Shown: positions 382 to 35,562, numbered from the stretch's first letter. The stretch is 52,859 nt of DNA from a virus (IMGVR_UViG_3300033489_000012:1-52859), one strand, 5' to 3'. The notes: a model not told the origin generated them from the letters alone. A program made the numbers and translations.

Positions 382-852
382 ATGCCTAACCCAAAGGGGA
401 ATAAACTAAAACAGAGAACCGAGTTAACACCGGAACGCTTGGAGAAATTCCTTATTGTACTGGCTGCGAATGGGGGAATGGTATCTCATGCTGCTAAAAA
501 TGTGCGGATATCGAGAACGGCTTTATATGAAAAACGGCGAGAAGATGAGGAATTCCGAAAGAAATGGGATGAAGCCCATCAACTGGGGATTGAAGTGCTG
601 GAGGATGAAGCCAAGAATCGTGCCCTGAACGGGACAAACAAACCAATTTATTATGAGGGGGAAGTGGTCGGGTTCAGCAAGGAAAAATCCGACACGCTCA
701 TGCGACTGATCCTTCAGGCATATAATCCAAAATATCGGGAGAAACATGAGATCACCGGAGCCGATGGAGGACCGTTGATATCCAAAGTTACGGTTTATCT
801 TCCAGACAACCAAAGAGGCAAAACTAAGCCAACAAAGGAGAAAGCCAGTTGA
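382..852 (+). CDS. terS: Terminase small subunit
   Basis: N-terminal HTH, LEDEAKNRA...SDTLMRLIL...HEITGADGGPL motifs; directly before terL; AGGAG RBS. Confidence 0.85.
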   Translation: MPNPKGNKLKQRTELTPERLEKFLIVLAANGGMVSHAAKNVRISRTALYEKRREDEEFRKKWDEAHQLGIEVLEDEAKNRALNGTNKPIYYEGEVVGFSKEKSDTLMRLILQAYNPKYREKHEITGADGGPLISKVTVYLPDNQRGKTKPTKEKAS

Positions 853-2231
853 CGATACCAGTGGAAGCGGCATTAATCGGGGAAGTCAAGGAGATCAGAC
901 CTCAACCCGGATCCCAGGAACGGTCGCTTGGCACTTCTGCCGATATCTCGGTTTACGGAGGAGCTGCTGGAGCTGGCAAAACGTTTTCGCTCTTAATGGA
1001 GCCTTTACGTCACATCGACAATCCCCGGTTCGGAGCCGTCATCTTCCGCAGAACTTATCCCCAAATTACCAATGAAGGGGGTCTGTGGGATACCTCGGCA
1101 GAAATTTATCCGCTTTGTGGCGGCATTCCTAAATCGGCTACAGCCGAGTGGATATTTCCCTCCGGCGCTAAGGTAAAATTTGCTCACATGCAGTATGAGG
1201 ACGATCGCTTCCAATGGGACGGAGCCCAGATCCCATTCATCGGGTTTGATCAATTAGAATCGTTCTCTTTCCGTCAATTTTTCTATATGCTTTCCCGAAA
1301 TAGATCCACCTGCGGAGTGGTTCCCTATATCCGGGCTACCTGTAACCCGGATCCAGATCATTGGCTCCGGCATTTTATGGCCTGGTGGATTGACGAGAAA
1401 ACCGGTCTTCCTATTATGGCTCGTTCCGGAGTGATCCGTTGGTTTGTGATTCTTAATAACGAAACGCATTGGGCCGACACGAAAGAGGAATTGACTGTAC
1501 GATTCGGAAAAACCACAAGACCGAAGAGTTTTACTTTTATCCCGGGTAATATCCGGGACAATCAGATTTTACTTACCCAAAATCCGGAATATCTGGCAAA
1601 CCTTCAAGCCCTTCCTCAAGTGGACATGGAGCGGTTATTGGGGGGTAACTGGAATGTGCGGGAGACGGCGGGAACGATCTTAAAAAGGATCTGGTTTGAG
1701 ATCGTGGAAGCGGCACCAGCCCTGGTCGATCATATCCGCTATTGGGATAGAGCCGGGACCGAGGCGAAGAAGGCGACGGCAAAGACCTCCTGGACTGCCG
1801 GTTGCCGGATGGGCAAGGATGCGAAGGGGGTTTATTACATCACCGGCATGGAGCGATTTCAGGGGCACCCCTTAGAAGTGGAACTATCCCTAAAAAATAC
1901 GGCTACGCAGGACGGAAGGGGGGTTAGGATTGGAATTGAGCAGGATCCGGCGCAAGCGGGAAAAATGGAGGCGCTTTACCAGGTGCGAAACTTAGCCGGT
2001 TATAATGTGATGGTCAACCCGGTGCGTGAATCCAAGGGGGCAAGGGTCAAACCGTTTTCGGCGCAGGCAAAGGCGGGGAACGTCAAATTGGTCCGCGGAC
2101 AATGGAATGAGGATTTCCTCCGGGAAGCGGAGAATTTTGACGGGACGGAAGATTGCGTTTCGGATCAAATCGATGCTTGTAGCGGGGCATTTCTACTCTT
2201 AACCTCGGTTAAAATGGCGGGGGTATGGTGA
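849..2231 (+). CDS. terL: Terminase large subunit
   Basis: Walker A GGAAGAGKT, IGFDQL Walker B variant, ATCNP motif III, C-terminal nuclease (YWD, DQIDA). Confidence 0.95.
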   Translation: MTIPVEAALIGEVKEIRPQPGSQERSLGTSADISVYGGAAGAGKTFSLLMEPLRHIDNPRFGAVIFRRTYPQITNEGGLWDTSAEIYPLCGGIPKSATAEWIFPSGAKVKFAHMQYEDDRFQWDGAQIPFIGFDQLESFSFRQFFYMLSRNRSTCGVVPYIRATCNPDPDHWLRHFMAWWIDEKTGLPIMARSGVIRWFVILNNETHWADTKEELTVRFGKTTRPKSFTFIPGNIRDNQILLTQNPEYLANLQALPQVDMERLLGGNWNVRETAGTILKRIWFEIVEAAPALVDHIRYWDRAGTEAKKATAKTSWTAGCRMGKDAKGVYYITGMERFQGHPLEVELSLKNTATQDGRGVRIGIEQDPAQAGKMEALYQVRNLAGYNVMVNPVRESKGARVKPFSAQAKAGNVKLVRGQWNEDFLREAENFDGTEDCVSDQIDACSGAFLLLTSVKMAGVW

Positions 2232-2250: not shown

Positions 2251-2610
2251 GTGGAAATAGCATTACGGGATTTAATGACTTTCTTCATCGGCATCATAGG
2301 GATAGCGGTCGGTTATGGGATATTAAAGCAACAGGCAAAAACAAGCATCGACGACATAAAGAAGATCAAAGAATGTCTTTCCGTTATCGATGGGAGCCAT
2401 CCGGATAGCAAGGGAGTGTCCATCTTTATTAAGCGGAACGAATGCGAGGAAAAAGAAGAAGAGAATGTGAGGCAGATCGGAGAGATAAAATTGAGATTAG
2501 ACGGACAACATAAGGCATTGAAAGGGTTGCAGAATTTTGCCAGGCACCAACTAGAGACAGAGAAATTGTCACTTATCGAAATCAACAAAATTCTTAACGG
2601 AGATGGTTGA
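2251..2610 (+). CDS. Small membrane-anchored coiled-coil protein
   Basis: N-terminal hydrophobic helix, good RBS, overlaps the portal start. Confidence 0.6.
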   Translation: MEIALRDLMTFFIGIIGIAVGYGILKQQAKTSIDDIKKIKECLSVIDGSHPDSKGVSIFIKRNECEEKEEENVRQIGEIKLRLDGQHKALKGLQNFARHQLETEKLSLIEINKILNGDG

Positions 2611-3992
2611 TGGCGGAAAAGAAATCCGATACAAAGACGGCTAAAAAAGAAGCTCTCACCGCGAATGAGAAGGCGGTACTGCTTCATGCCTTATCCTCCG
2701 CCATGCAGATTCGGGCGGAGATCGCTTCCCGGCTGGGTAAATCCTTCGGGGACAAACGGGATCTATACGAAACTCTCGGCTACAGTAAAACTCCGAGCTT
2801 CAACGATTACATGGCTTGTTATGAGAGACAAGACATTGCCAAAGCCATTATCGACAAACCGGTGGAGGCATGCTGGGGAAAACCTCCCGAGATCAGCGAA
2901 TCACTGGAAAAGCAGACCGAATTTGAGACGGCATGGACAGATCTTAACAACAGGATTAAAATCTGGCATTATCTCTCCAGGGTTGACCAGCTGGCGAGTA
3001 TCGGAGAATACGCGGTTCTTTTGATGGGATTTGACGATAGCGGCGGATTCGATAAGGCGGTTACCGGGAAGCCCAAGTTGCTTTATCTTTGTCCGTATTC
3101 TCAAGCAGATACGGAAATTTCCGAATACGAGAAGAATCCGAAGAACGAACGCTTTGGCCTTCCCTTAATTTATTCGATTAAAATGAGATCGGGGATATTG
3201 TCAGAAGGGAGCACTTCAAAAGACGTGCACTGGTCCCGGGTTATTCATGTGGCACAGGGGTGTTTGCAAAACGATGTTTTCGGCACTCCGCAGTTAAGAT
3301 CGGTCTTGAACCGGCTGCAGGATTTAGATAAGATTCTGGGTGGATCGGCGGAGATGTTCTGGAGAGGGGCATGGGGGGGACTAAATTTTAAGTTGGACCC
3401 AGATGCAAATCTATCGGAGCCACAAAAGACCGATATGATAGACGAAATCGAGAAATATATTCACCGACTGCAAAGATACATCCGGACCGTGGGGGTGGAT
3501 GTGCAGGAGCTGGGGGGAACGGTAGCGGACCCGGCGAGCCATGTGGATGCACAACTAACCTTGATTTCGGCGGCAACTGGAATACCGAAAAGAATTCTGC
3601 TCGGATCGGAGCGGGGGGAATTGGCATCCAGCCAAGACGAAAAATCATGGATGGATCAGGTAGATCAGAGACGGAAATTATACTGCGAATCGTTCATCCT
3701 TCGACCCCTTATTGATCGGTTAATCAAATTGAAAGCTTTATCCACACCCCAAAAGGGCTATCAGTGCATTTGGCCCGATCTGATGCAGTCAAGTGAAAAG
3801 GAAAAGGCGGAGGTCGGGGAGATAAAGTCGAGGACGCTGGGGAATTATGCTAACTCGATTGGAGCCGATACGGTGGTCCCCCGGGAGACATTCCTGACCG
3901 ACATCATGGGGATGAGCAAGGAGAAGGTGGAGCAGATAGACAAAATACTGGAAGGAAGTTACGAAGATGAAGATGCAGATGCAGATGAATAG
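2607..3992 (+). CDS. Portal protein (DUF1073 type)
   Basis: Position after terL; VHWSRVIH and TGIPKRILLGSERGELASSQD motifs. Confidence 0.9.
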   Translation: MMAEKKSDTKTAKKEALTANEKAVLLHALSSAMQIRAEIASRLGKSFGDKRDLYETLGYSKTPSFNDYMACYERQDIAKAIIDKPVEACWGKPPEISESLEKQTEFETAWTDLNNRIKIWHYLSRVDQLASIGEYAVLLMGFDDSGGFDKAVTGKPKLLYLCPYSQADTEISEYEKNPKNERFGLPLIYSIKMRSGILSEGSTSKDVHWSRVIHVAQGCLQNDVFGTPQLRSVLNRLQDLDKILGGSAEMFWRGAWGGLNFKLDPDANLSEPQKTDMIDEIEKYIHRLQRYIRTVGVDVQELGGTVADPASHVDAQLTLISAATGIPKRILLGSERGELASSQDEKSWMDQVDQRRKLYCESFILRPLIDRLIKLKALSTPQKGYQCIWPDLMQSSEKEKAEVGEIKSRTLGNYANSIGADTVVPRETFLTDIMGMSKEKVEQIDKILEGSYEDEDADADE

Positions 3993-4422
3993 GCGCAGCT
4001 TTTTGTTTTCTTTTATTTTGTCTTGTTTGGGCGTTCTTTTCGCCAAGATTGCTTTGGGTGAAAACCGGATCACAGATTGCAAGGATTGCCGGGGGGACTA
4101 TGCCTGTTGCAAGGGCATAGAGAATCCGGATGGCTTGTTTCATATCCCTGTTTTTGGTTGGGAGCGGGACATCCTGATCGAACAGGGGGGGTTGGGGGGT
4201 GTTAAGGTCGGACATTTCGAGGATTTCGGGGCAGGTATTTTTATCTGGCATAGCGAGTCAAGGGATTGCCCCTTCTTAAAAGACAATAGATGTTTGATAT
4301 ACGATAAACGTCCGAAGCCATGTAGGGTTTATTATTGTGATGACTGGAAATTAACGGAAGCGGAGCGGTTAAAAATCGAACAGAAAGTAGACGGGGAGTG
4401 GAATGAGAATACTTGTAAGTAG
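3985..4422 (+). CDS. YkgJ-family cysteine-cluster protein with twin-arginine-like leader
   Basis: CxxC...CC and CPFL...CLIYDKRPxxCRxY motifs; N-terminus MNRRSFL plus hydrophobic stretch (start moved to 3985). Confidence 0.75.
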   Translation: MNRRSFLFSFILSCLGVLFAKIALGENRITDCKDCRGDYACCKGIENPDGLFHIPVFGWERDILIEQGGLGGVKVGHFEDFGAGIFIWHSESRDCPFLKDNRCLIYDKRPKPCRVYYCDDWKLTEAERLKIEQKVDGEWNENTCK

Positions 4423-5083
4423 TATACTTTTGCTTCTGCTATTTAATCTTGGTTGGGGAGACCATGAGACTATCCGTCCGACCAAAGAGAGGGGAGAGTC
4501 GGGTTGGGCTTGTACAGGCGGGGGATGCAGTGATTCAACGGCGGTAAGCGATCAAAGTGATTTAACCTATGTCTCTGCTTCTACGATTGGTTTTGAATCC
4601 GGTTTTGCCCTTACCGACTTCATTATTCAGCAAGGTTTTGACAGCTTGCAAATCTTTGTTAGAGCCAATAGTAGTACGGCAGGGAATACCATAGCTTTGG
4701 GTTGGGGATGCTTTGAGACTGAATTTGGGGAAAATCACTGGGCAGTTTGTAACGGTATTTGTTTTTACGATACGGGGGAACAGGGAGAATGCAGTGGGGC
4801 AGATACGGTAACGCTTGGAACTTTGATCTCGAATTTCTGGGTGATAACCCTAACTTATGATCCCAGTGTAGGATTGCCCTGGGATACGACCCATTTTAAT
4901 AATAGTACGTATCCGTATTGGCATAGTAGTCTGCTCAATTTAGAATGCACAACGGTAGGAAGCAAGCAGGTAAATTACGTCTACGAAATTTGGGCGGAGA
5001 GATGGTGGACGCCGGAGGCAGTGCCTGAAAATAAAAATATAGAAAGACGGATGAGAAATTTAAGGGAATCTACAAATAAATAA
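4403..5083 (+). CDS. Putative exported protein, Cys-containing
   Basis: Sec-type signal MRILVSSILLLLLFNLGWG; beta-rich mature region. Confidence 0.65.
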   Translation: MRILVSSILLLLLFNLGWGDHETIRPTKERGESGWACTGGGCSDSTAVSDQSDLTYVSASTIGFESGFALTDFIIQQGFDSLQIFVRANSSTAGNTIALGWGCFETEFGENHWAVCNGICFYDTGEQGECSGADTVTLGTLISNFWVITLTYDPSVGLPWDTTHFNNSTYPYWHSSLLNLECTTVGSKQVNYVYEIWAERWWTPEAVPENKNIERRMRNLRESTNK

Positions 5084-5096
5084 CGGGAGAGTTTTT

Positions 5097-6638
5097 ATGA
5101 AAAGAGTATGTTATTTTGTTGTTTTATTGATCTTGTTTTTAGGGATTAGTTCTGCTTTTGGGTATTTCGGTGAATTCGGAGATGGGACGTCTCCTTCCGA
5201 TACTGTCCGGTTAAGTTTTTGCACTTGGGATTCCTCCGGTCATGGGGCTAATGCCGATACCGTTGAATGGAAGCGGTTTTGGCATGGTGTTTTGATTGAC
5301 AGCACAAGAGACGCAGCGAACACCTATTTAATAAGACCCGGAATGTACTCGTTACCAAAAAGAGCTTATTCTCCGGGAAAGTATGGAGAGTATGAGGTTT
5401 ATTTTTGGTTTAACTATATAGACAAAGATCAGAGAGTTTACCAGTCTGATAGTTATACCGTTAGACAGGGTGATTTAAAACCAATGGCGGTTAATGTATC
5501 GGCAGACCATGTAAAAGCTTCAAATTATTTTTATGCTCCCAATGCAGCTTATTATGATTCAACGCCAACACAGCGATCTACAGGAGAAGCGTTACATCCT
5601 GATGTTGTATATGATCCCAATGGTTGGAAAGGACATAAATTTTGGATGGCATTTACGCCTTATGGGGATGAACCGGAAGACCCGCAGATTCTTGTAAGTG
5701 ATGATGGAAGAAATTGGAAGTTTCCACGGGCTTACTATGTTTATGTAGATTCTGCTGAAGATAGTAGAATGTTTGCTGATCCGGATTTAATCTGGGATGC
5801 AAGACAAGATACGCTATGGTGTTTTTATACTCGGCTTATTCAAACCGTTGAAGAGACTACTTATGTATGTCAAAAAGCTTCTGTTGATGGTGTTACTTGG
5901 GGTGGTCGCATATTAACTTGGAAAAATACTGGTTTAGGGATTATGAACCCCTCTTTGGTATATGATCCAAGTAGTGCTCAATATAGAATGTATTATGTTC
6001 GAGGTTTTACCGGCACTTCGAAACTATACTACAAAGATAATCCTATTTTAGGGGGAACGGGTTGGTCAAGTGCCGATACTATCCCTTGTATTATTCCACA
6101 TATTGCTGGTAAAAAACTTTGGCATCTAAACGTAAATAAAGTTTGGGATGGTTATCACGGCTTCTTTTTAGAATGTGATTCTACTACCAGTGGGTCGGAG
6201 GGGGTTTTGTATTTTGCTAAAAGTTCCGATGGAATAACGTGGACAATAGACGATATTCCACTTTTGACCAAAGGCAAAGCTGCTGCTTGGGATTCTAACT
6301 GGGTTTATCAGGCTTCAGCTGTTCCTTTGACAAGAAATGGTATCTTGACTTATGGTTTATGGTATTCTGCCCAGGGCGGTTTAAATAATGAGTTTCATAT
6401 AGGGTACACAGAACTTAAATTCTTGGCTGATTTAAACAATATATATGCGATAAAAAATAAGACCGAAGATTTATCGAATTTTTTGGGGGCAGAATCCGGA
6501 GATACGATTGTCTTTTATCCTACCGATGGTTCGGCAAATAAGGATAGTTGCGCAGTCTTTCATAACGGATGGAAAAGGAGCTTGAGCTTTGGTCACAGCA
6601 ATAATCCGGCGGTCATTGATACTACTTTTACTCGTTAG
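5097..6638 (+). CDS. Putative exported protein with glycoside-hydrolase-like beta-propeller domain
   Basis: Signal peptide; HPDVVY..WMAFTPY..EDPQILVSDDGRNW; Asp-box-like SVDGVTW and SSDGITW repeats. Confidence 0.7.
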   Translation: MKRVCYFVVLLILFLGISSAFGYFGEFGDGTSPSDTVRLSFCTWDSSGHGANADTVEWKRFWHGVLIDSTRDAANTYLIRPGMYSLPKRAYSPGKYGEYEVYFWFNYIDKDQRVYQSDSYTVRQGDLKPMAVNVSADHVKASNYFYAPNAAYYDSTPTQRSTGEALHPDVVYDPNGWKGHKFWMAFTPYGDEPEDPQILVSDDGRNWKFPRAYYVYVDSAEDSRMFADPDLIWDARQDTLWCFYTRLIQTVEETTYVCQKASVDGVTWGGRILTWKNTGLGIMNPSLVYDPSSAQYRMYYVRGFTGTSKLYYKDNPILGGTGWSSADTIPCIIPHIAGKKLWHLNVNKVWDGYHGFFLECDSTTSGSEGVLYFAKSSDGITWTIDDIPLLTKGKAAAWDSNWVYQASAVPLTRNGILTYGLWYSAQGGLNNEFHIGYTELKFLADLNNIYAIKNKTEDLSNFLGAESGDTIVFYPTDGSANKDSCAVFHNGWKRSLSFGHSNNPAVIDTTFTR

Positions 6639-6912
6639 TCTATTTTTAGTCTCGATCTGCTTCGGAGATATGAGGGTTCCAGGAGACTGGAGATTTAGAA
6701 CTTCGTTTAATAGAGACTGGAGATTCCAGGATTCAGGGGTTGCCGGGGGAACCATTCCTCAGCCAGCCCGGATTTACGATAACGGAGCGATTGCCAAGAT
6801 TTTTGATAATGGAATGATTTTTCAAATCTTTAAATATTGGCAGATAAGAGAGGAACAAAACGGCGTCATTTTTCTGAAAGCAAACGGAGATATGGTCAAA
6901 ATCAATCCTTAA
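6589..6912 (+). CDS. Small putative exported protein
   Basis: Hydrophobic leader; internal short repeats (DWRF x2, xDNGxI x2). Confidence 0.55.
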   Translation: MVTAIIRRSLILLLLVSLFLVSICFGDMRVPGDWRFRTSFNRDWRFQDSGVAGGTIPQPARIYDNGAIAKIFDNGMIFQIFKYWQIREEQNGVIFLKANGDMVKINP

Positions 6913-6925
6913 AAAGGAGGTTTAG

Positions 6926-8179
6926 GTGGCGATATTTAAGAGCATTCCGGAAAAACTGAGACTGCTTCTAATGCTCGTCGTTGCGGTTTCAGTCTTGTGG
7001 GTCCCGGTTTGGGCGGTGATAAACCGAATAACCGGATCGAATATCATCGACGGAAACGGGCTCCGGTTCGGAACGGCAGTTGGGGGAAAGGATTCGCTGG
7101 TAGTCTTGCCGGGATACACGATGTTATTTGACGGCGATTCGGTAGAGATTGACACAACCAACCTGAAATCCTTGTTCGCTAATTATTTTGTGACCCTTGG
7201 AACCATTCAAGATATCGGCGGGGTAAAACATTTTACCGATACCTTGGCAACAGGCACCCAGGGGACGGACGGAATTTTTAAGATTTATTCGGAACAGGGC
7301 GGAACCGATTTTGGGATTGTTTTTAAACCTCATGCTACGATGACACAGACAACGGTTTATCTCTGGCCTGCCAATGATGGGGATGCGAGTCAATTTCTAC
7401 AAAGTGACGGAGCGGGGAATCTTACCTGGGCAACGCCTTCGGGATCAGGGGATATGTTAAAAGCGACCTATGATGTATTAGAATCCGGAGTCGTGGATGA
7501 TGTTGACACCATTGGGACGCAGATAGCGGCTGCGCTGTCTTACAGAACCACTCCGGCAGCGGTTTCCGCCTTACTGGGTGATTCACTTGGGGACTATCTT
7601 ACCTCTACTGTCATAGCTGCGTGGATTGGAGATTCCCTGGGAGATTATTTGACGGCAACAGCCATAGGTGCGATACTAAGCGATTCAATGTGGAACCCCA
7701 CATTCTTGCCTCGAAATAATAGCCTGGCGATCGGTGAAGGTTTGGATGATAGTGTTAGCGTTTTATATCCCTTAAGATCAGGAGTTATCAGCTGGGCAGT
7801 GAAACATATAAACGAATCGGGCGCGGCCGCCGACCAAATGGATACCGTAGTTTTCAGCTGGATATTGCCGGCAGGCGTGCCGGATGTGGATTCGATCACT
7901 TTTAATTTGAGAACATCGAGTGCGGATACCGCTGTCAGCGGTCTAAGAGTGAGGTGCTTCAAGCAGACGGCAGAATTGGGAGCGAAGACCGCACTTACCG
8001 CCACACTGATAGGATTCTTTACGGCTACAGATGCCTGGGAGCATAAAACCATCGCGGGAGCAAGCATCGGAGCGATTGCCGGAGGGAATGAATTGTCTAT
8101 TGAGATGTGCGTCCAGACAGATGCGGCTGCGGTAGTTTGGCATGACGAGCCAAAGGTTTGGTGCATGAATAAACAGTAA
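6926..8179 (+). CDS. Tail-fibre-like protein with signal peptide
   Basis: Leader ending VPVWA; WPANDGDASQFLQSDGAGNLTWAT and GSGDMLKATYD motifs typical of phage fibres; GDSLGDYLT repeats. Confidence 0.6.
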   Translation: MAIFKSIPEKLRLLLMLVVAVSVLWVPVWAVINRITGSNIIDGNGLRFGTAVGGKDSLVVLPGYTMLFDGDSVEIDTTNLKSLFANYFVTLGTIQDIGGVKHFTDTLATGTQGTDGIFKIYSEQGGTDFGIVFKPHATMTQTTVYLWPANDGDASQFLQSDGAGNLTWATPSGSGDMLKATYDVLESGVVDDVDTIGTQIAAALSYRTTPAAVSALLGDSLGDYLTSTVIAAWIGDSLGDYLTATAIGAILSDSMWNPTFLPRNNSLAIGEGLDDSVSVLYPLRSGVISWAVKHINESGAAADQMDTVVFSWILPAGVPDVDSITFNLRTSSADTAVSGLRVRCFKQTAELGAKTALTATLIGFFTATDAWEHKTIAGASIGAIAGGNELSIEMCVQTDAAAVVWHDEPKVWCMNKQ

Positions 8180-8189
8180 TCGGAGCTAC

Positions 8190-9224
8190 ATGAAGAAAAT
8201 CCTAATAATGATTGGCCTTGTGATCTCGTTATGTTCCAGTCTGCCAGCGCAGACCATAACACTCAGGGATACTCTTTTTCTTTCCAAAGCCACCCATATG
8301 AATGACGACCTGGCAAGCTGGGATTCGGTCTTCGTTAAGATCATGCGGGGATCGGTTCTGGTTTCGAGAATCAAATTAACCGAAGGGGACAGCGGGGAAT
8401 ATGCCGGTGTATATAAACCAACTTATAGCGGCGATTTTGTGGCGCAATACTATGCCGTCTATGCGGGGGAGATCATCAGAGAGGAGGAATATTTTAGCGT
8501 TTTGGATACTACCGCATTCATGGGATCGGCGGCGGGATTAACGGCGCAGGAGATAGTTGACTCTCTGGTTGGCCGAGGATGGTTCCCGGGGACGGGGGCG
8601 TATGCATGTACGGTCCAGGTAAGGGATAGTTCGGCAGAAGCTGGGATAAATGCCGTTCATGTGATTATTAGAAATAATGATCAATCGGCTACGATAAGAC
8701 ATGGCTGGACCAATGCCGATGGGAAAGTGTGGTTCGCCCTGGATTCGCTCGGGACAGGGGCAAGTTACAAACCCTGGCTATTACAACTGGGCTATAATTT
8801 TGTCTTCCCGGAGACAATGGATGTGCGCGGGCCCGATACATGGACGTTTTACGGCACCGCTTTTGACTGGGGAGGACCACCGCCCGATTCACAAACTATG
8901 GTGGCGGGACAGATATTTGATTTAACCTTAGATAGTCTTTCCGGGGTGAAGGTATCGGCAAAACTTTATATTCCGGCCGGCGGGATTTTGCATTACCATG
9001 AACATCCGATAACGCCATTCGAGGTTGTAGATACCACCGGGGCGGATGGAAAGTTTAGATTGAATCTACTTTCCAACGATTTGCTCTGGCCGCAGCCGAA
9101 TCATTATATTTTTAATTTCATATACCCGGCGACTAAAGACGGGAAGTTTTTCATTAAGGCGGACACCGTGGATGTGCCGTACAGCGCCACGGCGGTTGAA
9201 TACGGAACTTTGAAGGGGTGGTAA
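8190..9224 (+). CDS. Putative exported beta-sandwich protein (carboxypeptidase-regulatory/prealbumin-like domains)
   Basis: Signal MKKILIMIGLVISLCSSLPA; repeated TNADGK and TTGADGKF motifs. Confidence 0.65.
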   Translation: MKKILIMIGLVISLCSSLPAQTITLRDTLFLSKATHMNDDLASWDSVFVKIMRGSVLVSRIKLTEGDSGEYAGVYKPTYSGDFVAQYYAVYAGEIIREEEYFSVLDTTAFMGSAAGLTAQEIVDSLVGRGWFPGTGAYACTVQVRDSSAEAGINAVHVIIRNNDQSATIRHGWTNADGKVWFALDSLGTGASYKPWLLQLGYNFVFPETMDVRGPDTWTFYGTAFDWGGPPPDSQTMVAGQIFDLTLDSLSGVKVSAKLYIPAGGILHYHEHPITPFEVVDTTGADGKFRLNLLSNDLLWPQPNHYIFNFIYPATKDGKFFIKADTVDVPYSATAVEYGTLKGW

Positions 9225-9225
9225 C

Positions 9226-9435
9226 TTGAAAATCGAAATATGCATAGGGAACACGATAAAAAGAGTTGACAAATCCGTGATACCCTATTTACTTTACCTG
9301 TGTGATTCAAGCGAGAAGGAATTGACCGGTAAGACCGCTTTTGAGCTCAACTGGTTCAAGGGCGGGATAACGAATATGAACCGAAACAAAAATCCTCTAT
9401 CTGGGGTGGAGGAAACGGAGAGCGTGAGGTTATGA
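9226..9435 (+). CDS. Small protein, possibly DUF2292/YezD-like
   Basis: 69 aa; TGKxxFELNWxxGGI and C-terminal ExxxRL pattern; resemblance recalled, not searched. Confidence 0.45.
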   Translation: MKIEICIGNTIKRVDKSVIPYLLYLCDSSEKELTGKTAFELNWFKGGITNMNRNKNPLSGVEETESVRL

Positions 9436-9608
9436 ATGAATTTAGAGCTAACGAAGACTTGGTTTTGGTAGAACTGAATCACCAAGAAGTTAGCAGGATT
9501 GCTGGTGCTTTAGAAAATCAAGATATATGGGAAGGACATTCTAGAGGTGATTCAAAATTGAGTTTGGAATTTGCTTGTCTCTTGGAAAAAATAGAAAAAA
9601 GAGTATGA
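9432..9608 (+). CDS. Hypothetical 58-aa protein (not in ORF track)
   Basis: MNEFRANEDLVLVELNHQEVSRI...EKRV, bounded by two junction repeats. Confidence 0.65.
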   Translation: MNEFRANEDLVLVELNHQEVSRIAGALENQDIWEGHSRGDSKLSLEFACLLEKIEKRV

Positions 9609-9612
9609 GATT

Positions 9613-9894
9613 ATGATAAAAACCACCAAGGAACTCATAGCGGATTTTAAGAAAAAGAGTCAAGTAAATCTAGAGGTAAGTAGAGCTTGGGCTGAGAAAC
9701 AGTTCTATGGGGATAATGTAGGACGTATGTTCCCTAATGTTCATAACTATAAACTCACCCTTCCTGACGGAACAACACTTGAATTTGCTGGTTTTGTTTA
9801 TCTTCCCGTAAGTATTCCAGAAGGAAAGAAATCTGTTAATATTGAAATCCATAGGATTGGTAAGGTAAAGGTAATAAGGAGACAGAGAGTGTGA
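9613..9894 (+). CDS. Hypothetical protein (cassette)
   Basis: ORF bounded by junction repeats; AT-rich. Confidence 0.65.
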   Translation: MIKTTKELIADFKKKSQVNLEVSRAWAEKQFYGDNVGRMFPNVHNYKLTLPDGTTLEFAGFVYLPVSIPEGKKSVNIEIHRIGKVKVIRRQRV

Positions 9895-9898
9895 GGTT

Positions 9899-10084
9899 AT
9901 GAGTGATATGACCTGGAAGGAATTCAAAGAGGGTATTGATAAAAAACTCGTCGCAGAAAATATATCCGAAGATACCCCAATTGAATATATTGATATTTCG
10001 CATCCCCCAAAAAATGCTATTGAGGACGATAGGGTTTATATATTAGTGGATTCACAGGGAATTGGCATTGCTCAACATTCATAG
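9899..10084 (+). CDS. Hypothetical protein (cassette)
   Basis: ORF bounded by junction repeats. Confidence 0.65.
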   Translation: MSDMTWKEFKEGIDKKLVAENISEDTPIEYIDISHPPKNAIEDDRVYILVDSQGIGIAQHS

Positions 10085-10099
10085 GGAGAGTGTGAGGCT

Positions 10100-10483
10100 A
10101 TGATAACAATAATCTTAGCGATATTGGCCATTATAATATCTGTCGGTAATTTGATTTATTTGAATAGATGCGTCAACAAAACCGAATGTGGAAAACTACG
10201 GCATGCCCAAGATAAAGCTATGTATGAGGAGATGCATCCAGAAGTAAAGACAACAAAATTACCTGATAATCTATTTCTGTGTAGTGTAAAAGAAAAATTT
10301 ATTCAATTTTTGCCATCTTCAAAAAAAGAAGGTGAATCAATATCATGCCCTCTTTGTAAGGATACTCATACACTGATTCCCGCGGAATGGATCCCGGGTC
10401 TTGACTATTCAAAACTGACAGAAGTTACAGATATCGAATCTGTTAATTCGGGATTTAAACTATACCTAAAGATCATGGTGTGA
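10100..10483 (+). CDS. Membrane-anchored hypothetical protein
   Basis: N-terminal TM helix; CPLC motif. Confidence 0.6.
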   Translation: MITIILAILAIIISVGNLIYLNRCVNKTECGKLRHAQDKAMYEEMHPEVKTTKLPDNLFLCSVKEKFIQFLPSSKKEGESISCPLCKDTHTLIPAEWIPGLDYSKLTEVTDIESVNSGFKLYLKIMV

Positions 10484-10806
10484 TGAATTTAATATGCGCA
10501 ATTTATATGAAGATACAATGGAGCATAAGTTGGAGAATCCGAGCATGGCATAGAATCCATGCCTTCTGTTGGGGAATCTGGTTTAAGATCCAAGATTTTA
10601 TTCGACTGATATTCCCGCATGTAAAACCATGGCTTAAGGCAGCCGGGAATATTCCGAAGGGAGGAATGGTTTGCATGAATAATTCAGGAGAAATAGAACC
10701 GGTTCCAAGAGCATCATTCGAATCAACAATTGGTGTCGCCATTGCTTCACTTCCAGACGGATTATTTAGAATAAAACTGGAGGAAAATTCGGAGTTGAGA
10801 CCATGA
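10480..10806 (+). CDS. Hypothetical protein
   Basis: Coupled start/stop; C-terminal half loosely like cement/DUF2190 proteins. Confidence 0.5.
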   Translation: MMNLICAIYMKIQWSISWRIRAWHRIHAFCWGIWFKIQDFIRLIFPHVKPWLKAAGNIPKGGMVCMNNSGEIEPVPRASFESTIGVAIASLPDGLFRIKLEENSELRP

Positions 10807-11294
10807 AAACAACACGTAAAGCATTTTTATATATAGCCAATAAACCCACTTCAAGAACTTTGAAATTGGTAGGAATTATAACCAAAATGGAGGCGATAAT
10901 ACATCCCTCTAATTTTGATCGAGCCATAATTCATAATCATAATAAGTCTTTTAAACTCCCCCTCCCAATTGAACCATCAGAACTCAAACTTATTATAGAG
11001 CGCAACGAAACAATAAAGAGAAAATCACTTCCTGCGGTTTCTTCTGATGCATTTAAACTTACGCCTTGTCTGGTTTTGCTTGACGACAGTTACAGGTTGC
11101 ACTTATTTACATTTATGGCATATTGCACCTCTGGAGTTCCACCACAGAACCCGGGTATTTTTAAATTGAGAGTTTTAGGGAGAGTTGATCTCCAGGTTTT
11201 GGGGAAAAGAAAATATAGGGAACTTACTAAATCTCTTGATTTATCAAAAAAGTGGCCATGTAATACTATTGACAGGAGAGTATTCGAACCATGA
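10803..11294 (+). CDS. Hypothetical protein
   Basis: Translationally coupled ORF, AT-rich. Confidence 0.55.
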   Translation: MKTTRKAFLYIANKPTSRTLKLVGIITKMEAIIHPSNFDRAIIHNHNKSFKLPLPIEPSELKLIIERNETIKRKSLPAVSSDAFKLTPCLVLLDDSYRLHLFTFMAYCTSGVPPQNPGIFKLRVLGRVDLQVLGKRKYRELTKSLDLSKKWPCNTIDRRVFEP

Positions 11295-11494
11295 AAATCT
11301 TGAAGATTGACAAAGATATGGTGCAGGTGGAGTTGACGAGAGAGGAAATAGAAACCATTAGGGTGGATTTAAGGTGGGGAGATAATAATCTCCCGAAGGA
11401 ACTTGAAGCATTAAAAGAAATGATGGATAGGGGAGTGCGTCTATATTCTGCCACTCCCGGCGGTACTTCAAAATTCCCAAAGGGAATTAATTAA
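11291..11494 (+). CDS. Hypothetical protein
   Basis: GGAG RBS; DMVQVELTREEI resembles the 9432 ORF. Confidence 0.6.
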   Translation: MKILKIDKDMVQVELTREEIETIRVDLRWGDNNLPKELEALKEMMDRGVRLYSATPGGTSKFPKGIN

Positions 11495-11507
11495 AAACTG
11501 AATAAGC

Positions 11508-11525
11508 AGTATCGGACACCGGATA
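11508..11525 (+). repeat. Truncated 5' copy of the conserved late-operon element
   Basis: AGTATCGGACACCGGATA, matching 11824-11841 at 17/18 positions; preceded by AAAACTGAATA as at 15442. Confidence 0.75.
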
Positions 11526-11535
11526 GGAGTATTAA

Positions 11536-11796
11536 ATGATAGAATATATTTGTGATGTCTGTGGGAAAGAAATCAGTGGGCCTGAATTTGCAGATTCAAC
11601 CATTCCTTTCCGTTCCTCGCCGATTGTAATTGAAGTAAAAGCAGAAAAAACACACAGAGTGGCTTTTGATGAATACATGGTAAAGGATCAACCAATTCTT
11701 TACAAAAAAATGCAAGTACATAAAGAGTGTGCAGATAAATTGATTGAAGAGATCGCGGGGGTGCTAAAAAAATACAGGAGAACTAATCATAGATAA
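11536..11796 (+). CDS. Small Zn-binding hypothetical protein
   Basis: CDVCG...HKEC; AGGAG RBS. Confidence 0.65.
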   Translation: MIEYICDVCGKEISGPEFADSTIPFRSSPIVIEVKAEKTHRVAFDEYMVKDQPILYKKMQVHKECADKLIEEIAGVLKKYRRTNHR

Positions 11797-11824
11797 TTAA
11801 TTGGGCATTTAAAAATTTAAGATA

Positions 11825-11888
11825 GTATCGGACACTGGATATAACCCAAGCCGATGTGATGGCAGAAATGTCATTGCATCGGTTTTTT
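11825..11888 (+). promoter_or_regulatory. Conserved antiterminator-like element plus intrinsic terminator (copy 1)
   Basis: GTATCGGACACTGGATATAACCCAAGCCGAT, then hairpin closing ATCGG and TTTTTT. Confidence 0.8.
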
Positions 11889-11916
11889 GTTGGGTAAAAA
11901 TTTAACGGGAGTTTGT

Positions 11917-12186
11917 ATGATAGAAAAAATGTGGTGCCCTATTTGTGGAGATTTTAAAACCCCCTTGTCTAAGATCACATATAAGGCGGGAATACAAGAA
12001 ATACTGGTGGATTGCGGCCACTACATGTATCTCAATCTGCATAATATTTGGAGAATTCATCCGGACGGAGAAAGGTATGCCGAAGCTTCGTTCAAGGAAA
12101 TGTTCGGTCAACCCCTGGAAATTGATGAAGACACCATAATAGAAGCGATTAGGGAAGCGCTAAAAAAGGGGAAACTGGACAAATAA
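11917..12186 (+). CDS. Zn-ribbon hypothetical protein
   Basis: WCPICG...DCGH; GGGAG RBS before ATG 11917. Confidence 0.55.
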   Translation: MIEKMWCPICGDFKTPLSKITYKAGIQEILVDCGHYMYLNLHNIWRIHPDGERYAEASFKEMFGQPLEIDEDTIIEAIREALKKGKLDK

Positions 12187-12189
12187 TTA

Positions 12190-13182
12190 TTGAAAAATAT
12201 GATAAGCACAACTCAAGTTCCAGAAGCGCATCATCATGGCAGGACCTACTTCTGCCTGAATCAGTCCCGGCGGATAGATCCGAGCAGAACCGGCGGAATC
12301 CAGAGGCGGTTCATCACCGAGATCAACAGACGGTTCAACCTGCTCAAAACCGAGATCAAAAAATCGGTTGTGGACAATGACTGTTTCGGACTCCAACCGA
12401 TGATTCATGCTTTAGCCACTGTTCCGGAAAGGGCTTTTGCCTTTGAGACTACGGATGAGAAGATCAAGAAATTTATGGCATGGCTGGAGGAACAGGAAAA
12501 CCTCTACATCCTGTCGGAGGGGCGGGAAGGACTGCTGATCATTATTCGGCCCGGGATAATCAGCGGGAATAAGCCCTGGACCAACATCTTTATCGATTCT
12601 GCCTATTCGCAGGGGATCAAAAGGGCAAGAGAGGAGCTTAGGCGAGCCGGCTATGATATTGCTTCGTTCGAGGCATTTCCCCGGGGGATCGGCGGACTGA
12701 TGAATCAGCCATTTCATGCGGAGCGGGTGGCGGTCATCTATACCAGGACCTTTGAGGATCTCAAAACAGTCACCCAGTTTATGAATGGGCAAACCAGGAG
12801 ATTGATTGCGGATGGTTTGACCACCGGATTGGCACAGGGGATGGCGGAGGGTAAGGGGCCGATGCAAATTGCCCGGGAGCTGGTTAAGGATGTAGCGAAC
12901 CGGGTTGATAAGATCGGGATTACCCGGGCCAGAATGATAGCGCGGACAGAGGTGATGCGGGCGCATCATGTAGCGAATATTGCGGAATATCGGCAGGCAG
13001 AGGCGGAGATGCAGGTTACGGTCGAAGCGGAATGGTTGACGGCGGGATATGATGTCTGCCCGGAGTGCGAGGACTTGGAGAGGAAAGTATTTACACTGGA
13101 TGAAATAGAAGGGATGTTGCCTCGTCACCCTAATTGCCGCTGCGTCGCTAGGCCAGTAGTAAAATCGGAAAAGGAGAAATAA
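12190..13182 (+). CDS. Head morphogenesis protein (MuF / SPP1 gp7 family)
   Basis: RARMIARTE and VCPEC...PRHPNCRC motifs. Confidence 0.92.
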   Translation: MKNMISTTQVPEAHHHGRTYFCLNQSRRIDPSRTGGIQRRFITEINRRFNLLKTEIKKSVVDNDCFGLQPMIHALATVPERAFAFETTDEKIKKFMAWLEEQENLYILSEGREGLLIIIRPGIISGNKPWTNIFIDSAYSQGIKRAREELRRAGYDIASFEAFPRGIGGLMNQPFHAERVAVIYTRTFEDLKTVTQFMNGQTRRLIADGLTTGLAQGMAEGKGPMQIARELVKDVANRVDKIGITRARMIARTEVMRAHHVANIAEYRQAEAEMQVTVEAEWLTAGYDVCPECEDLERKVFTLDEIEGMLPRHPNCRCVARPVVKSEKEK

Positions 13183-16974: not shown

Positions 16975-17616
16975 GTGATGCGGAATCCCAACCTCTGGGT
17001 GGTCCCAAAGATATGGCAGGGGGGCGAATGCTTCATCCTGGGTGGCGGTCCGAGCCTCAACCGGGTCAATATGGAGCTTTTGAGGAATAAGCGGTGCCTT
17101 GCCGTCAACAATGCCTTTAAGTTGGGCGACTGGATTGATGCAATGTTTTTCGGAGACCTCAATTTCCACCGATGGGAAAAGCACAACCTTCTGAATTTCG
17201 CCGGGCTAAAGGTAACGATTCGGGGAGAACTCATCAATGCGCCGGGAATCAAGGTGATGCGACGGGACAATTCGCCGAATGCGGGGATATCGACCAGGCC
17301 CGGAATATTGAACTGGAATTATAGCTCCGGAGCCTGCGCCATCAATCTGGCCTATCTTTTCGGAGTCAAAAGGATCATCCTGCTGGGGTTTGACATGAAA
17401 ATGGACGGCGGCCGTCACAATTATCATACCGATTACCCGACGGCAAATGATCCTCCGCCCAAAAAGCACGATCCGAACAGCCGGTATACCAGATTTATGA
17501 AACCGTTTCCTGCGATAGCGGAGTCGCTCAAAAGATTGAATGTGGAGTGTTTGAATGCCACGGAAGGAAGCGCGCTGACAGTTTTCCCGATGGTTCGACT
17601 GGAGGATGTGGTATGA
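16975..17616 (+). CDS. MptE-like / DUF115 (Maf-type) glycosyltransferase-related protein
   Basis: ILGGGPSL, LAVNNA and SSGACAINLAYLFGVKRIILLGFD motifs. Confidence 0.75.
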   Translation: MMRNPNLWVVPKIWQGGECFILGGGPSLNRVNMELLRNKRCLAVNNAFKLGDWIDAMFFGDLNFHRWEKHNLLNFAGLKVTIRGELINAPGIKVMRRDNSPNAGISTRPGILNWNYSSGACAINLAYLFGVKRIILLGFDMKMDGGRHNYHTDYPTANDPPPKKHDPNSRYTRFMKPFPAIAESLKRLNVECLNATEGSALTVFPMVRLEDVV

Positions 17617-18323
17617 TCACCATAGCCACCGTGTTCAAGAAAGGTGGGGGGTATGATGTTTCCTATATTATGAAATTGGCGGCAGGAATTGAGGCGAACC
17701 TGAAAACGCCCCATATCTTCATGTGCCTCTCGGATGAATTGGAGAAAAACATTGGTATCAGTGAACTTCCAAATCATTACATCGTACCGCTACGGCATAG
17801 TTGGCCCGGGTGGTGGGCTAAGATGGGGCTCTTTTCACTCCAGGGACCAGCGCTTTACTTTGACTTAGACACGGTGATCACCGGAGCGATTGATGACCTG
17901 GCGAGGTGGATTGTAAATAACCCGGGTCCGCTGGTGATGCTGCGGGGATTTTACCGGGGCGATCAGTGTTCCGGGATCATGGGTTGGAATGGTAATTTAA
18001 CCTGGATTTTTGATCAGTTCCGAATCAATTTTGGCAATCAGGCGGCGTTTCACAAAGAGAGGCAGGGAGTTTCGATGACGGTTGGGAACAAGCGATTCAG
18101 GGGAGACCAGGACTGGTTAAAGGAATTGAGCCGACAGAGATCAGACCAGATAAAAGTCGTCATGGCGCAGGATATTTTTCCGGGAATCTATAGTTATAAG
18201 GTGGACATTCTGCCGAAAGGGAAATTGCCTGCGGATGCAAAAATAATTTGTTTTCATGGTCTTCCGCGACCGGCAGAAATTAAGCCGCAACCGGAATGGT
18301 TGAAGAAGCACTGGGGAGAATGA
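17613..18323 (+). CDS. GT-A fold glycosyltransferase (GT8-like)
   Basis: YFDLD (DxD), GDQDW and IICFHGLPRP motifs; start moved to 17613. Confidence 0.8.
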   Translation: MITIATVFKKGGGYDVSYIMKLAAGIEANLKTPHIFMCLSDELEKNIGISELPNHYIVPLRHSWPGWWAKMGLFSLQGPALYFDLDTVITGAIDDLARWIVNNPGPLVMLRGFYRGDQCSGIMGWNGNLTWIFDQFRINFGNQAAFHKERQGVSMTVGNKRFRGDQDWLKELSRQRSDQIKVVMAQDIFPGIYSYKVDILPKGKLPADAKIICFHGLPRPAEIKPQPEWLKKHWGE

Positions 18324-19636
18324 AATTGATATATCCCGATGATTTTATTAATAGGGCTATCTGCATAGATTGCCGTGGAGGGTTGAAGTTACTGCCGGAT
18401 AATTCCATCTCTGCCTGCATTACCGATCCCCCTTATGAGTTAGGTTTTATGGGTAAGGCATGGGATAAGAAGGGCGTAGCTTATGATGTCGATATGTGGC
18501 GTGAAGTCCTACGGGTCTTGAAACCTGGCGGACACTTACTCTCTTTCGGCGGAAGCAGAACCTATCACCGTATGGCTTGCGCTATTGAGGACGCTGGTTT
18601 TGAGATAAGGGATATGATTGAATGGGTTTACGGATCAGGATTCCCGAAGAGTTTAAATATTAGCAAGGCGATAGATAAAAAGGCAGGGGGGAAAAGGAAA
18701 GTGGTAGGAGTCAATCCAAACTATTGCGAAAACAGAGTGGATAGTATCGGAACGGCAAATGGTATTTATGGTGGTGCGGGACCAGACAAGGGAAAATATA
18801 TTACTGCTCCCCTAACATCCGAAGCCCAACGATGGTCTGGTTGGGGCACTGCTCTCAAGCCCGCACACGAGCCGATTTGCATGGCAAGAAAACCTCTATC
18901 TGAAAAGACCGTTGCCGAGAATGTGTTGAAGTATGGAACAGGGGGGATCAATGTGGATGGATGTAGAGTAGAGACAACAGGGGATGAATTGCCTGAATTA
19001 AATAGGGTTAGTAAACGCCCAGCGGATAAGGCTTCTGGTTTTATGACATCAACAAAGCATACATTTATTCCATCCCAAGGTCGCTTTCCCGCCAACTTAA
19101 TCCACGATGGCTCGGATGAAGTGCTGGCGGAATTTCCATCAACTGAAACACACGAGGGGATATGTCACAAATATAGTGGAACATCAATGTTCGGACTCGG
19201 AGGAGTTGGGAGAAGTCATGCAAATTCCGGCTCTGCCGCCCGATTCTTTTACTGTGCGAAAGCAAGCAAGACGGAAAGAGATATGGGATGTGGAGGGGGA
19301 GAAGAAAAACAAAGAGATGAAGGTCGAAAAAAAGGGAATCCAGGTGGTGATAATCCAAGAAATTGTGGTTTAAATAAAAGAACCAATTACCATCCCACCG
19401 TCAAGCCCCTTGCCCTTATGCGTTACCTGTGCCGATTAGTTACTCCGCCAGGTGGTGTGGTTATTGATCCTTTTGCCGGTTCTGGAAGCACTCTGATTGC
19501 GGCGGCGCAAGAGGGGTTTCAGTTTATAGGGTTTGATGATGTACCCGCTTATGTGGAAATCACAGAGAAAAGATTGAATGCCGTGCCTAAAACTTTGTTT
19601 AACCCGGTTCTTGTGGGAGAATATGGGACAAGATAG
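18320..19636 (+). CDS. DNA N6-adenine/N4-cytosine methyltransferase (beta class)
   Basis: TDPPY, HPTVKP and DPFAGSGST motifs. Confidence 0.92.
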   Translation: MKLIYPDDFINRAICIDCRGGLKLLPDNSISACITDPPYELGFMGKAWDKKGVAYDVDMWREVLRVLKPGGHLLSFGGSRTYHRMACAIEDAGFEIRDMIEWVYGSGFPKSLNISKAIDKKAGGKRKVVGVNPNYCENRVDSIGTANGIYGGAGPDKGKYITAPLTSEAQRWSGWGTALKPAHEPICMARKPLSEKTVAENVLKYGTGGINVDGCRVETTGDELPELNRVSKRPADKASGFMTSTKHTFIPSQGRFPANLIHDGSDEVLAEFPSTETHEGICHKYSGTSMFGLGGVGRSHANSGSAARFFYCAKASKTERDMGCGGGEEKQRDEGRKKGNPGGDNPRNCGLNKRTNYHPTVKPLALMRYLCRLVTPPGGVVIDPFAGSGSTLIAAAQEGFQFIGFDDVPAYVEITEKRLNAVPKTLFNPVLVGEYGTR

Positions 19637-19834
19637 ACTTTTCATATTACATCGACACGATATTGTATTCTGTCTGTATAATGGCGGATTCTGGATTCGT
19701 TTCTGGGGTAGGGGTATTGCCATAATCAATAAAATCAAACACCGCCCGCCTTTCAGTGAAAGACATGGTTACAAGAAAGTATTCAGGATTGGAAGGTATG
19801 GCATTGAATTGTTGGGAAGAAGCTCAAGGGGAGA

Positions 19835-20986: not shown

Positions 20987-20991
20987 ATAAA

Positions 20992-35245: not shown

Positions 35246-35300
35246 TGCGGTCAACGGATGAAACAGATTAAACGGACGAAACCTTTAACAAGGAGAGATT

Positions 35301-35561: not shown

Positions 35562-35562
35562 T

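Follow-up and report, generated by a model that had tools for sequence, protein, structure and literature searches.

In the textbook picture, tailed phages assemble the parts of their virions in the cytoplasm, and the phage proteins known to be exported are lysis factors, exclusion proteins and single morons. Signal-arrest-release (SAR) endolysins and spanins are exported late lysis proteins of phages, and morons such as lambda Lom and Bor encode exported proteins. Modular receptor-binding proteins and tailspikes, for example P22 gp9, Sf6 gp14 and the CBA120 tailspikes, join a conserved N-terminal adaptor to an exchangeable distal part. Here we describe a block of six consecutive open reading frames (ORF1 to ORF6, Table 1; hereafter the cassette) between the portal gene and a MuF-like minor head gene of the virus record IMGVR_UViG_3300033489_000012, a linear stretch of 52,859 bases with an estimated completeness of 85%, which we call the window when we mean its whole length. 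The block works most like modular receptor-binding proteins and shows moron-like insertion behaviour without moron autonomy. What appears to be new is a six-gene cassette away from the tail genes, with a metal protein predicted to be exported through the twin-arginine translocation (Tat) pathway and a control-tested excess of a glycosylation motif, and there is a real chance that the block belongs to an undescribed assembly route.

An earlier note on this DNA had placed six consecutive ORFs between portal and head genes and had read a signal-like leader, one Tat-like and five of the general secretory (Sec) type, on every ORF from 3985 to 9224. All six ORFs are present on the forward strand and tightly packed, and the leader features agree with that description. 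Leaders were called with a heuristic of our own, which asks for positive charge in the n-region, a hydrophobic core free of charges and small residues at the cleavage site, and the calls denote predicted export only. Across the six leaders, the n-region has a net charge of +1 to +3, the uncharged core spans 16-22 residues and the best 8-residue hydropathy is 2.7-3.9. Those of ORF2 to ORF6 have the features of Sec/signal peptidase I leaders, with a net charge of +1 to +2, an uncharged core of 17-22 residues and AxA-type sites; the predicted cuts are GWG/D in ORF2, SSA/F or AFG/Y in ORF3, CFG/D in ORF4, VWA/V in ORF5 and LPA/Q in ORF6. The Tat consensus is (S/T)-R-R-x-F-L-K before a moderately hydrophobic core, and ORF1, read from the ATG at 3985, begins with the twin-arginine motif MNRRSFLF ahead of a core with hydropathy 2.67, a motif that its homologue in a related metagenomic locus (L002:6796-7194) keeps as MNRRNFLK. 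A comparable hydrophobic N-terminus occurs in 10 of 51 genes on the curated list, six of the 10 being the consecutive cassette ORFs, and a run of at least six leader genes arose in 100 of 200,000 gene-order shuffles. Lipoprotein signals were considered and rejected: no leader has a typical lipobox, and the loose pattern that ORF1 fits is absent from its homologue. Sorting domains of the type IX secretion system gave no Pfam match in the cassette proteins.

Homologues without leaders had been named beforehand as the observation that would speak against export, and the homologues keep their leaders. The ORF6 family has a leader in 14/14 members and the ORF5 family in 10/10 (alignment A4). A profile search for ORF5 gave 16 full-length rows, two of them already in A4; 12 of the 14 new ones bear a leader, and the other two are ORF calls that start inside it. 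Relatives of the ORF3 N-domain carry a leader in 3/3 cases, as does the sole free-standing relative of ORF4. For ORF2, the search of the fetched loci returned no relative, and this, together with the heuristic nature of the calls, is what could be said for the idea that the leaders are not used at all, the true starts lying downstream or the frames being chance ones. We regard that idea as scarcely credible and close to refuted: wherever a family has relatives, its leader is conserved at the protein level, neither ORF5 nor ORF6 has an in-frame start just downstream of the leader, the motif excess described below is confined to cassette proteins, and a run of six is unlikely by chance. Leader conservation, the conserved twin-arginine motif of ORF1 and the five-fold excess of a periplasm-dependent glycosylation motif in cassette proteins alone thus give strong support to the premise of export.

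The motif in question, D(S/T)(A/I/L/V/M/T), is that of a general O-glycosylation system of Bacteroidota (PMC8550257; PMC12871550). ORF2 contains 4 copies against 0.67 expected from shuffles, ORF3 10 against 1.97, ORF5 12 against 2.64 and ORF6 8 against 1.48, together 34 motifs against 6.7 expected (ratio 5.08). Six control motifs (wrong third residue; E first; N first; reversed; A or G in the middle; G first) occur at 0.73-1.13 times chance in the same four proteins, and among the 47 other proteins of the window that were tested, no motif excess reached p < 0.05. Given that the beta-rich tail protein made of immunoglobulin (Ig)-like repeats is depleted in the motif (1 copy against 5.1 expected), a general artefact of beta-strands is argued against. 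The motifs are distributed along the cassette proteins, with five falling in the ORF3 propeller, and leaderless propeller relatives show no excess (P0004, 0 against 1.1 expected; P0006, 2 against 1.9). The excess recurs in cassette proteins of the related loci L002, L003 and L005 and in the proteins P0008-P0029 (z about 3-8), a 303-residue L002 cassette protein being a weak exception (z 1.3); the terminase, portal, MuF, scaffold and capsid proteins of L002 have none. In 14/14 further full-length ORF5-like representatives the count is 2 to 4.5 times the analytic expectation, and in giant proteins that share only the ORF5 fibre module the ratio is 1.21 with a leader and 0.96 without one. Overall, cassette proteins hold a conserved load of 2-3 motifs per 100 residues.

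Like substrates of the Bacteroidota O-glycosylation system, the cassette proteins thus combine a Sec leader with many motif copies, and their predicted leaders and motif counts are what would be expected of exported proteins of this class; unlike those substrates, they are phage proteins whose genes have GGAG sites, and their glycosylation is predicted. From the leaders and the motifs, we infer export, leader cleavage and glycosylation of the cassette products, which, given both features, would be placed in the periplasm as glycoproteins. That their maturation takes place beyond the cytoplasm is almost certain. We conclude that these proteins appear to be under selection for export and glycosylation in a Bacteroidota-like host.

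The host is probably Bacteroidota-like. Q follows the predicted cleavage site in 12/14 members of the ORF6 family, as in signal peptidase I substrates under the Q-rule of Bacteroidetes, a rule for which Ignavibacterium album is also listed with a high Q-value of 77% (PMC5837995). A scan of 185,579 species genomes with ORF6-family and large terminase (TerL) alignments returned nothing, and as a search with few short patterns it is weak evidence of absence. TerL matches comprised 1489 records, all below 60% identity, the best-ranked at 48% (Methanoculleus viruses and Rhizobium phages), and were uninformative on the host.

The individual products differ in how much can be said of them. ORF1 is rich in cysteine (10 Cys) and places a CxxCxxCC metal-binding domain after its Tat-type leader (PF03692, putative zinc- or iron-chelating; 29.9 bits against a cut-off of 23, model positions 2-84 of 85). 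ORF2 contains 7 Cys, its Atlas model has low confidence (predicted local distance difference test, pLDDT, 0.45), and the only structural leads are to proteins resembling carbohydrate-binding modules (CBMs) or phage cement, so that a jelly-roll-like fold is uncertain. The proteins found at the ORF2 slot in L002, L003 and L005 are unrelated to ORF2, yet they too have leaders and a motif excess; among the ORF2-slot proteins of the four loci, phmmer detected no mutual homology at E up to 1.

ORF3 is built of a Sec leader, an N-terminal adaptor (residues ~23-140), a beta-propeller carbohydrate-active centre (~148-440) and a conserved C-terminal tail (~447-513). The propeller proposed earlier for this gene is borne out: residues 148-272 match residues 37-165 of the PDB chain 6n1a_A (E 1.8e-11), deacetylase-like in that it may be a GalNAc deacetylase, although deposited as 'Carbohydrate-binding protein'; the centre also matches phrog_37952, and the ORF3 relative P0004 carries BNR_2 (PF13088). 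The adaptor, about 120 residues long, is common to P0002 and P0003, where it is joined to ORF6-type distal domains, and in L005:1020-3074 the ORF3 adaptor and tail surround the centre of a CE4 polysaccharide deacetylase (PF01522, E 8e-14). Homology between the N-domains of ORF3 and ORF6 was rejected (hhalign probability 0.25). ORF4 is a small, predicted secreted protein with the motif MRVxGDWRF..WRFQ and a C-terminal 'ARIYDNGxIAxIFDNG' module. Its homologue in L005 (3055-3324) sits in the same slot and has a leader, and in L003 the C-terminal module is fused to the end of an upstream exported protein of 392 aa.

In ORF5, a conserved n-region, MAIFKSIPEKLR, precedes a 21-residue uncharged core and the VWA/V site; the family as a whole keeps the n-region pattern K-x-I/L-x-E-K-I/L-R, the AxA site and the start of the mature protein (INRIxGxN). 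The leader is followed by a fibre-repeat shaft with the motif LPANDGDASQFLQSDGAGNLTW, whose length varies in the family, and by a C-terminal jelly roll with likeness to carbohydrate-binding modules (best Z 9.0, to CBM61; root-mean-square deviation, rmsd, 3.0; 112 aligned residues). The same domain reaches Z 7.7-8.6 with phage tail and fibre chains, a beta-sandwich arrangement of this kind being common. The AlphaFold2 (AF2) model of ORF5 has a mean pLDDT of 47.9 and only the C-terminal domain is confident, with one helix over residues 7-35 and pLDDT <50 at 33-105 and 174-300; such a poor monomer model of the shaft is compatible with an obligate oligomer. Profiles of the ORF5 and ORF6 families found no match in the PDB better than E 0.1.

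The conserved n-region, which is unusual for a plain signal peptide, bears on a reading in which some of the leaders are uncleaved anchors, with ORF5 seated in the inner membrane as a type II protein and its shaft crossing the periplasm, in an envelope-spanning lysis or release structure of spanin-like logic. The 21-residue core and the helix over residues 7-35 would suit such an anchor, as would the position of the cassette beside lysis genes in L002 and L005. The conserved AxA site and mature N-terminus of ORF5, on the other hand, suit cleavage, a candidate outer-membrane lysis protein of the window's own lies by the holin-like gene, and fibre repeats, a lectin tip and enzymes are not known from lysis systems. 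We therefore consider an anchored structure very unlikely. Like exported lysis proteins, the cassette products are probably made late and bound for the periplasm before lysis, and in L002 and L005 their genes neighbour the endolysin gene; unlike them, they include no muralytic or spanin-like family, and the lysis genes of the window lie elsewhere.

ORF6, which had been described as a beta-sandwich protein, indeed models as three such domains (AF2 pLDDT 79.1; residues 21-105, 138-224, which is CnaB/transthyretin-like, and 235-327). Its second domain (137-226) resembles a CnaB2 domain (Z 11.8, rmsd 1.7, 85 aligned), and its third the neck fibre of cyanophage A-1(L) (Z 11.2, rmsd 2.3, 95 aligned) and a lambda tail-tip chain (Z 9.3); the match to PF13620 (CarboxypepD_reg), at 23.7 bits, is under the cut-off of 32.3. 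The 13 relatives in the family keep the N-domain and show three kinds of C-terminal ending, which makes the distal domain swappable.

The predicted architecture of these products is thus modular in the manner of receptor-binding proteins, with a conserved adaptor and an exchangeable enzyme or lectin-like part. As in such proteins, the adaptor carries an enzyme or a binding domain, a fibre-repeat shaft ends in a CBM-like tip, and a carbohydrate-active enzyme centre is predicted (a CE4 deacetylase in L005). Unlike receptor-binding proteins, every member of the cassette has a predicted export signal and is rich in the motif, none belongs to a Pfam or PHROG fibre family, and the genes lie between portal and MuF and not after the tail genes. 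The absence of a recognisable fibre gene after the tail hub, pointed out earlier, stands: no Pfam or PHROG fibre family was found in the genes that follow it. Given this receptor-binding-like design and a hub without a fibre gene after it, we favour, as a tentative best reading, that the products dock to virions at lysis as appendages for host recognition and polysaccharide processing.

In that case, ORF1 would leave the cytoplasm folded, via Tat, and ORF2 to ORF6 would go via Sec, lose their leaders and, once in the periplasm of a Bacteroidota-like host, be O-glycosylated at their numerous D(S/T)(A/I/L/V/M/T) sites. The products would wait there and dock on particles built in the cytoplasm once the inner membrane gives way at lysis, thereafter serving the phage as its appendages for recognizing the host and processing its polysaccharide. 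ORF5 would supply a shaft with a lectin-like tip, ORF6 a string of beta-sandwich beads with a swappable distal domain, ORF3 a sugar-modifying enzyme that is mounted on an adaptor and has its centre swapped from one phage to another, and ORF4 a small connector. Late addition of fibres and spikes in trans works in vitro for classical phages.

Several results weigh against docking. A docking partner is not apparent, and comparison of the cassette proteins with those of the tail, neck and head of the window brought up no resemblance; none of the six matches a fibre or tailspike family in Pfam, PHROG or NCBIfam (E 0.01-0.05 or better), 0/6 matching any NCBIfam entry. The 'tail-fibre motif' noted earlier in ORF5 is real, but it is not specific to virions: the profile of the motif module matches 1185 library proteins, giants up to about 4,600 residues included, in which the module is a repeat unit, and a hydrophobic leader is present on 80/146 new representatives among the 150 ORF5-profile matches listed. 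Because the module is common in giant proteins, many of them with leaders, it is no proof of a virion fibre. Furthermore, conservation in ORF5 is highest in the C-terminal domain, which sets it apart from most fibre tips, and the poor ORF5 model aligns with BFVD tail fibres at a template modelling (TM) score of 0.23 or less. By fold, ORF6 matches generic domains of surface adhesins (Ig-like, CnaB and pilin-type), and overall it looks like an adhesin or pilin bead-string. In viral loci with a related major capsid protein (MCP), the cassette is absent from 33/35 within the stretches fetched, and among the relatives that have it, its place shifts, and in L002 and L005 it is found with lysis genes. 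An integrase and a CI-like repressor mark the phage as temperate, so a role in the lysogen is possible. We know of no tailed phage that adds periplasmic parts to its particle, and our literature search found no paper on periplasmic maturation of tailed-phage fibres or parts. Finally, the host is uncertain: Q follows the cleavage site in only 1/5 Sec leaders of the window, class Bacteroidia rarely uses GGAG-type ribosome sites, and given that such sites precede most of the six cassette ORFs, the genes suggest a host that is not a typical member of that class and may lie outside it.

The lack of a virion partner would also suit products that are exported and glycosylated but never part of the particle, acting free in the envelope or surroundings to strip or mask surface polysaccharide late in infection, which could help progeny escape, keep them from re-adsorbing to debris or prevent superinfection. 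The enzyme slot does hold carbohydrate-active domains (the 6n1a match of ORF3, PF01522 in L005), the cassette directly follows the endolysin in L002 and L005, and its absence from most relatives is what an accessory function would show. Yet six proteins with adaptor exchange and a fibre shaft exceed the needs of a soluble enzyme, the heavy and conserved motif load suggests long-lived exposed proteins, and the lysis genes of the window are 25 kb from the cassette. The earlier note had offered two readings, appendages that mature in the periplasm and join the virion at lysis, or a host-surface structure; the free-acting reading is a third of roughly equal likelihood, a serious candidate that we nevertheless hold to be somewhat doubtful.

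Turning to expression, the ORF1 frame read from its 3967 start overlaps the portal stop by 26 nt, and the junctions from ORF1 to ORF6 measure, in order, -20, +13, -50, +13 and +10 nt. The portal gene and ORF1 leave no intergenic space in which a promoter could lie, and neither promoter nor terminator could be made out convincingly within the block (31 promoter-like consensus matches against 24.4 in shuffles), the sole strong hairpin lying 2.6 kb downstream of it. Because the portal-packed genes leave no room for a promoter and the block itself offers nothing convincing, we infer late co-expression with the structural genes.

Genes like ORF5 and ORF6 were found in four metagenomic loci (L002, L003, L004 and L005), on the late strand in all of them. 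The phage of L002 shares 65% identity with the window in terminase, 65% in capsid, 51% in portal and 32% in hub, and L002/L006 has both hub and cassette in common with it. The portal-MuF interval of L002 starts with an outer-membrane-like leader protein, two membrane ORFs and a lysozyme, followed by a Tat-CxxCxxCC gene, two leader-bearing genes and ORF5- and ORF6-like genes. In L005 the cassette lies after the endolysin and before early genes; in L003, where it likewise lies ahead of early genes, one member is a TylF-type methyltransferase without a leader; and L004, a fragment of 2.4 kb, has only ORF5- and ORF6-like genes. A scan of viral contigs with an MCP alignment gave 35 loci, of which only L006 and L007, representing the L002 phage or a near-identical one, have the cassette. 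Corresponding scans with portal, ORF6, ORF5 and the ORF3 adaptor found nothing, and only the MCP alignment retrieved relatives. Cultured phages yielded no relatives by blastn of the block or tblastn of ORF5 and ORF6. Conservation of the block in related phages, which the earlier note had asked about, takes the form of a cassette in four loci that keeps its leaders and varies in position, the motif excess being kept in L002, L003 and L005.

Seven relatives at a greater distance (L015, L017, L018, L034, L035, L039 and L040) have portal and MuF side by side; the two genes stand 0.45-0.9 kb apart in L029, L012 and L014 and are separated by other cargo in L009, L010, L021, L036 and L037. Because the contents of this interval vary so among relatives, the portal-MuF junction is an insertion hot spot and the block its cargo, a mobile late-gene cassette; given that its position differs among relatives, it is not a fixed part of the head module. 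At this junction in L021 (2358-4598) and L037 (5069-6421) we also observed a large leader-bearing protein with no Pfam family and no motif excess, and it may be that phages with other hosts take up exported proteins here again and again. The MuF homologue of L002 (L002:11043-13052) has 669 residues against 330 in the window, a ~340-residue insertion splitting its conserved C-terminal part; the placement is intein-like, but no Pfam intein family matched.

Varied cargo of this kind, including the large leader-bearing proteins of L021 and L037, would also fit a lysogenic-conversion cassette, through which the prophage would give its host glycosylated, adhesin-like surface or periplasmic proteins in the way of lambda Lom and Bor. 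The temperate lifestyle, the GC content of the block (0.451 against 0.488 and 0.525 in the flanks) and the resemblance of ORF6 to tandem adhesin or pilin domains point the same way. Against this stand the missing room for a promoter before ORF1 and the lack of convincing signals within the block, the late-strand position in all four loci, the empty, pattern-limited scan of species genomes and the lack of relatives in cultured phages, and we consider lysogenic conversion unlikely. Like morons, the cassette consists of signal-peptide proteins in the late structural operon of a temperate phage and has the odd composition and patchy presence among relatives that mark such genes. Unlike morons, it comprises six co-oriented, portal-packed genes without their own promoter or terminator, is kept as a multi-gene cassette in four loci, and combines fibre, enzyme and adaptor modularity.

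Table 1. Positions of the cassette genes and of other features of the window, counted from its first base
Feature	Position	Strand	Remarks
Small and large terminase genes	382-2231		
Portal gene	2607-3992	+	PF06381, E 7e-34; upstream border of insertion
ORF1	3967 or 3985-4422	+	two candidate ATG starts
ORF2	4403-5083	+	
ORF3	5097-6638	+	
ORF4	6589-6912	+	
ORF5	6926-8179	+	
ORF6	8190-9224	+	
Second low-GC insert	9226-12186	+	GC 0.378; small ORFs; between cassette and MuF
93-residue ORF in the insert	9613-9894		
Hairpin with T run	11848-11885		17 pairs
Last small ORF of the insert	11887-12186		
MuF-like minor head gene	12190-13182	+	PF04233, E 1.5e-13; downstream border of insertion
Transferase gene group	16975-23307		between capsid gene and head-tail connector genes
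Tail tube protein	24997-25413		
Tape measure	26236		
Ig-repeat tail protein	28690-31926		1078 residues; after tape measure
Tail hub	31923-34247		774 residues
Lysis genes	34718-36247		
Signal-peptide protein among the lysis genes	34718-35245		~170 residues
Integrase	37941-38960		opposite strand to late genes
CI-like repressor	39599-40282		opposite strand to late genes; then early genes

The window phage is a temperate siphovirus. One small membrane-type ORF separates the terminase genes from the portal gene, and MuF is followed by a DUF2213-type scaffold/protease (under the Pfam cut-off), a head-decoration protein and an HK97-type capsid protein. The tail genes are lambda-like up to the tape measure and continue with the Ig-repeat protein and the hub, which found no match in a PDB sequence search; downstream of the hub lie an HNH gene, a leader-bearing outer-membrane-like protein, a holin-like ORF and a lysozyme-like protein. 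Nearly all of the Ig-repeat protein consists of ASH/HYDIN-type Ig-like repeats (PF15780, E 8.7e-57, six stretches), and its L006 homologue has just 343 residues. The signal-peptide protein at the start of the lysis genes, immediately before the genes for the holin-like and lysozyme-like products, has an aromatic residue (F) at its C-terminus and is homologous to L002:5196-5705 (phmmer E 6e-6), which occupies the same position upstream of the L002 holin-like/lysozyme-like genes; it is a candidate outer-membrane lysis component standing in for recognisable spanins.

Between the cassette and MuF, the second low-GC insert has no leaders except a membrane-type N-terminus at 10100 and no Pfam match above family cut-offs. 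Its 93-residue ORF resembles the tail tube protein of the window (57% over 21 residues) as well as that of L002, and may be a tube-gene fragment or a decoy. The hairpin, the strongest terminator-like site of the first 16 kb, closes the inserted region just ahead of the insert's last small ORF and MuF. A protein database places ORF3 and ORF6 on a contig whose length, 57,379 bases, exceeds that of the window; for this reason the virus record is probably a piece of a larger contig, which might contain host flanks.

The transferase gene group comprises sialyltransferase-like (phrog_4603, E 2.8e-33), glycosyltransferase (phrog_1962), DNA methylase, Methyltransf_23 and sulfotransferase-like genes, and a sulfotransferase-like gene also lies 3' of the capsid gene in L002, L008, L010, L011, L012 and L014. 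This group might tailor a glycan for the capsid or for exported proteins. Carried further, the whole host-recognition apparatus could be built outside the cytoplasm, with ORF4, ORF5 and ORF6 as a multi-part fibre and ORF3 contributing enzymes; all would fold in the periplasm, receive there host O-glycan altered by the phage's own cytoplasmic transferase group, and dock on finished particles at burst. To this we give a slim chance.

The consequences differ with the reading. If the outside-cytoplasm apparatus were real, phages would have a second, extracytoplasmic branch of assembly and virions wearing host glycan edited by the phage. If the cassette products act free, they would be a new kind of phage-encoded secreted kit for processing polysaccharide. 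Under docking at lysis, which we tentatively prefer, products that join the particle would do so by an assembly route so far unrecognised, and phages could carry host glycans in this way. This would bear on host-range prediction and on the engineering of phages of Bacteroidota-like bacteria, and it would mean that annotation misses fibres if the search is confined to leaderless genes downstream of the tail module. Whichever reading holds, the motif excess gives a hint, from sequence alone, of the host phylum of uncultured phages.

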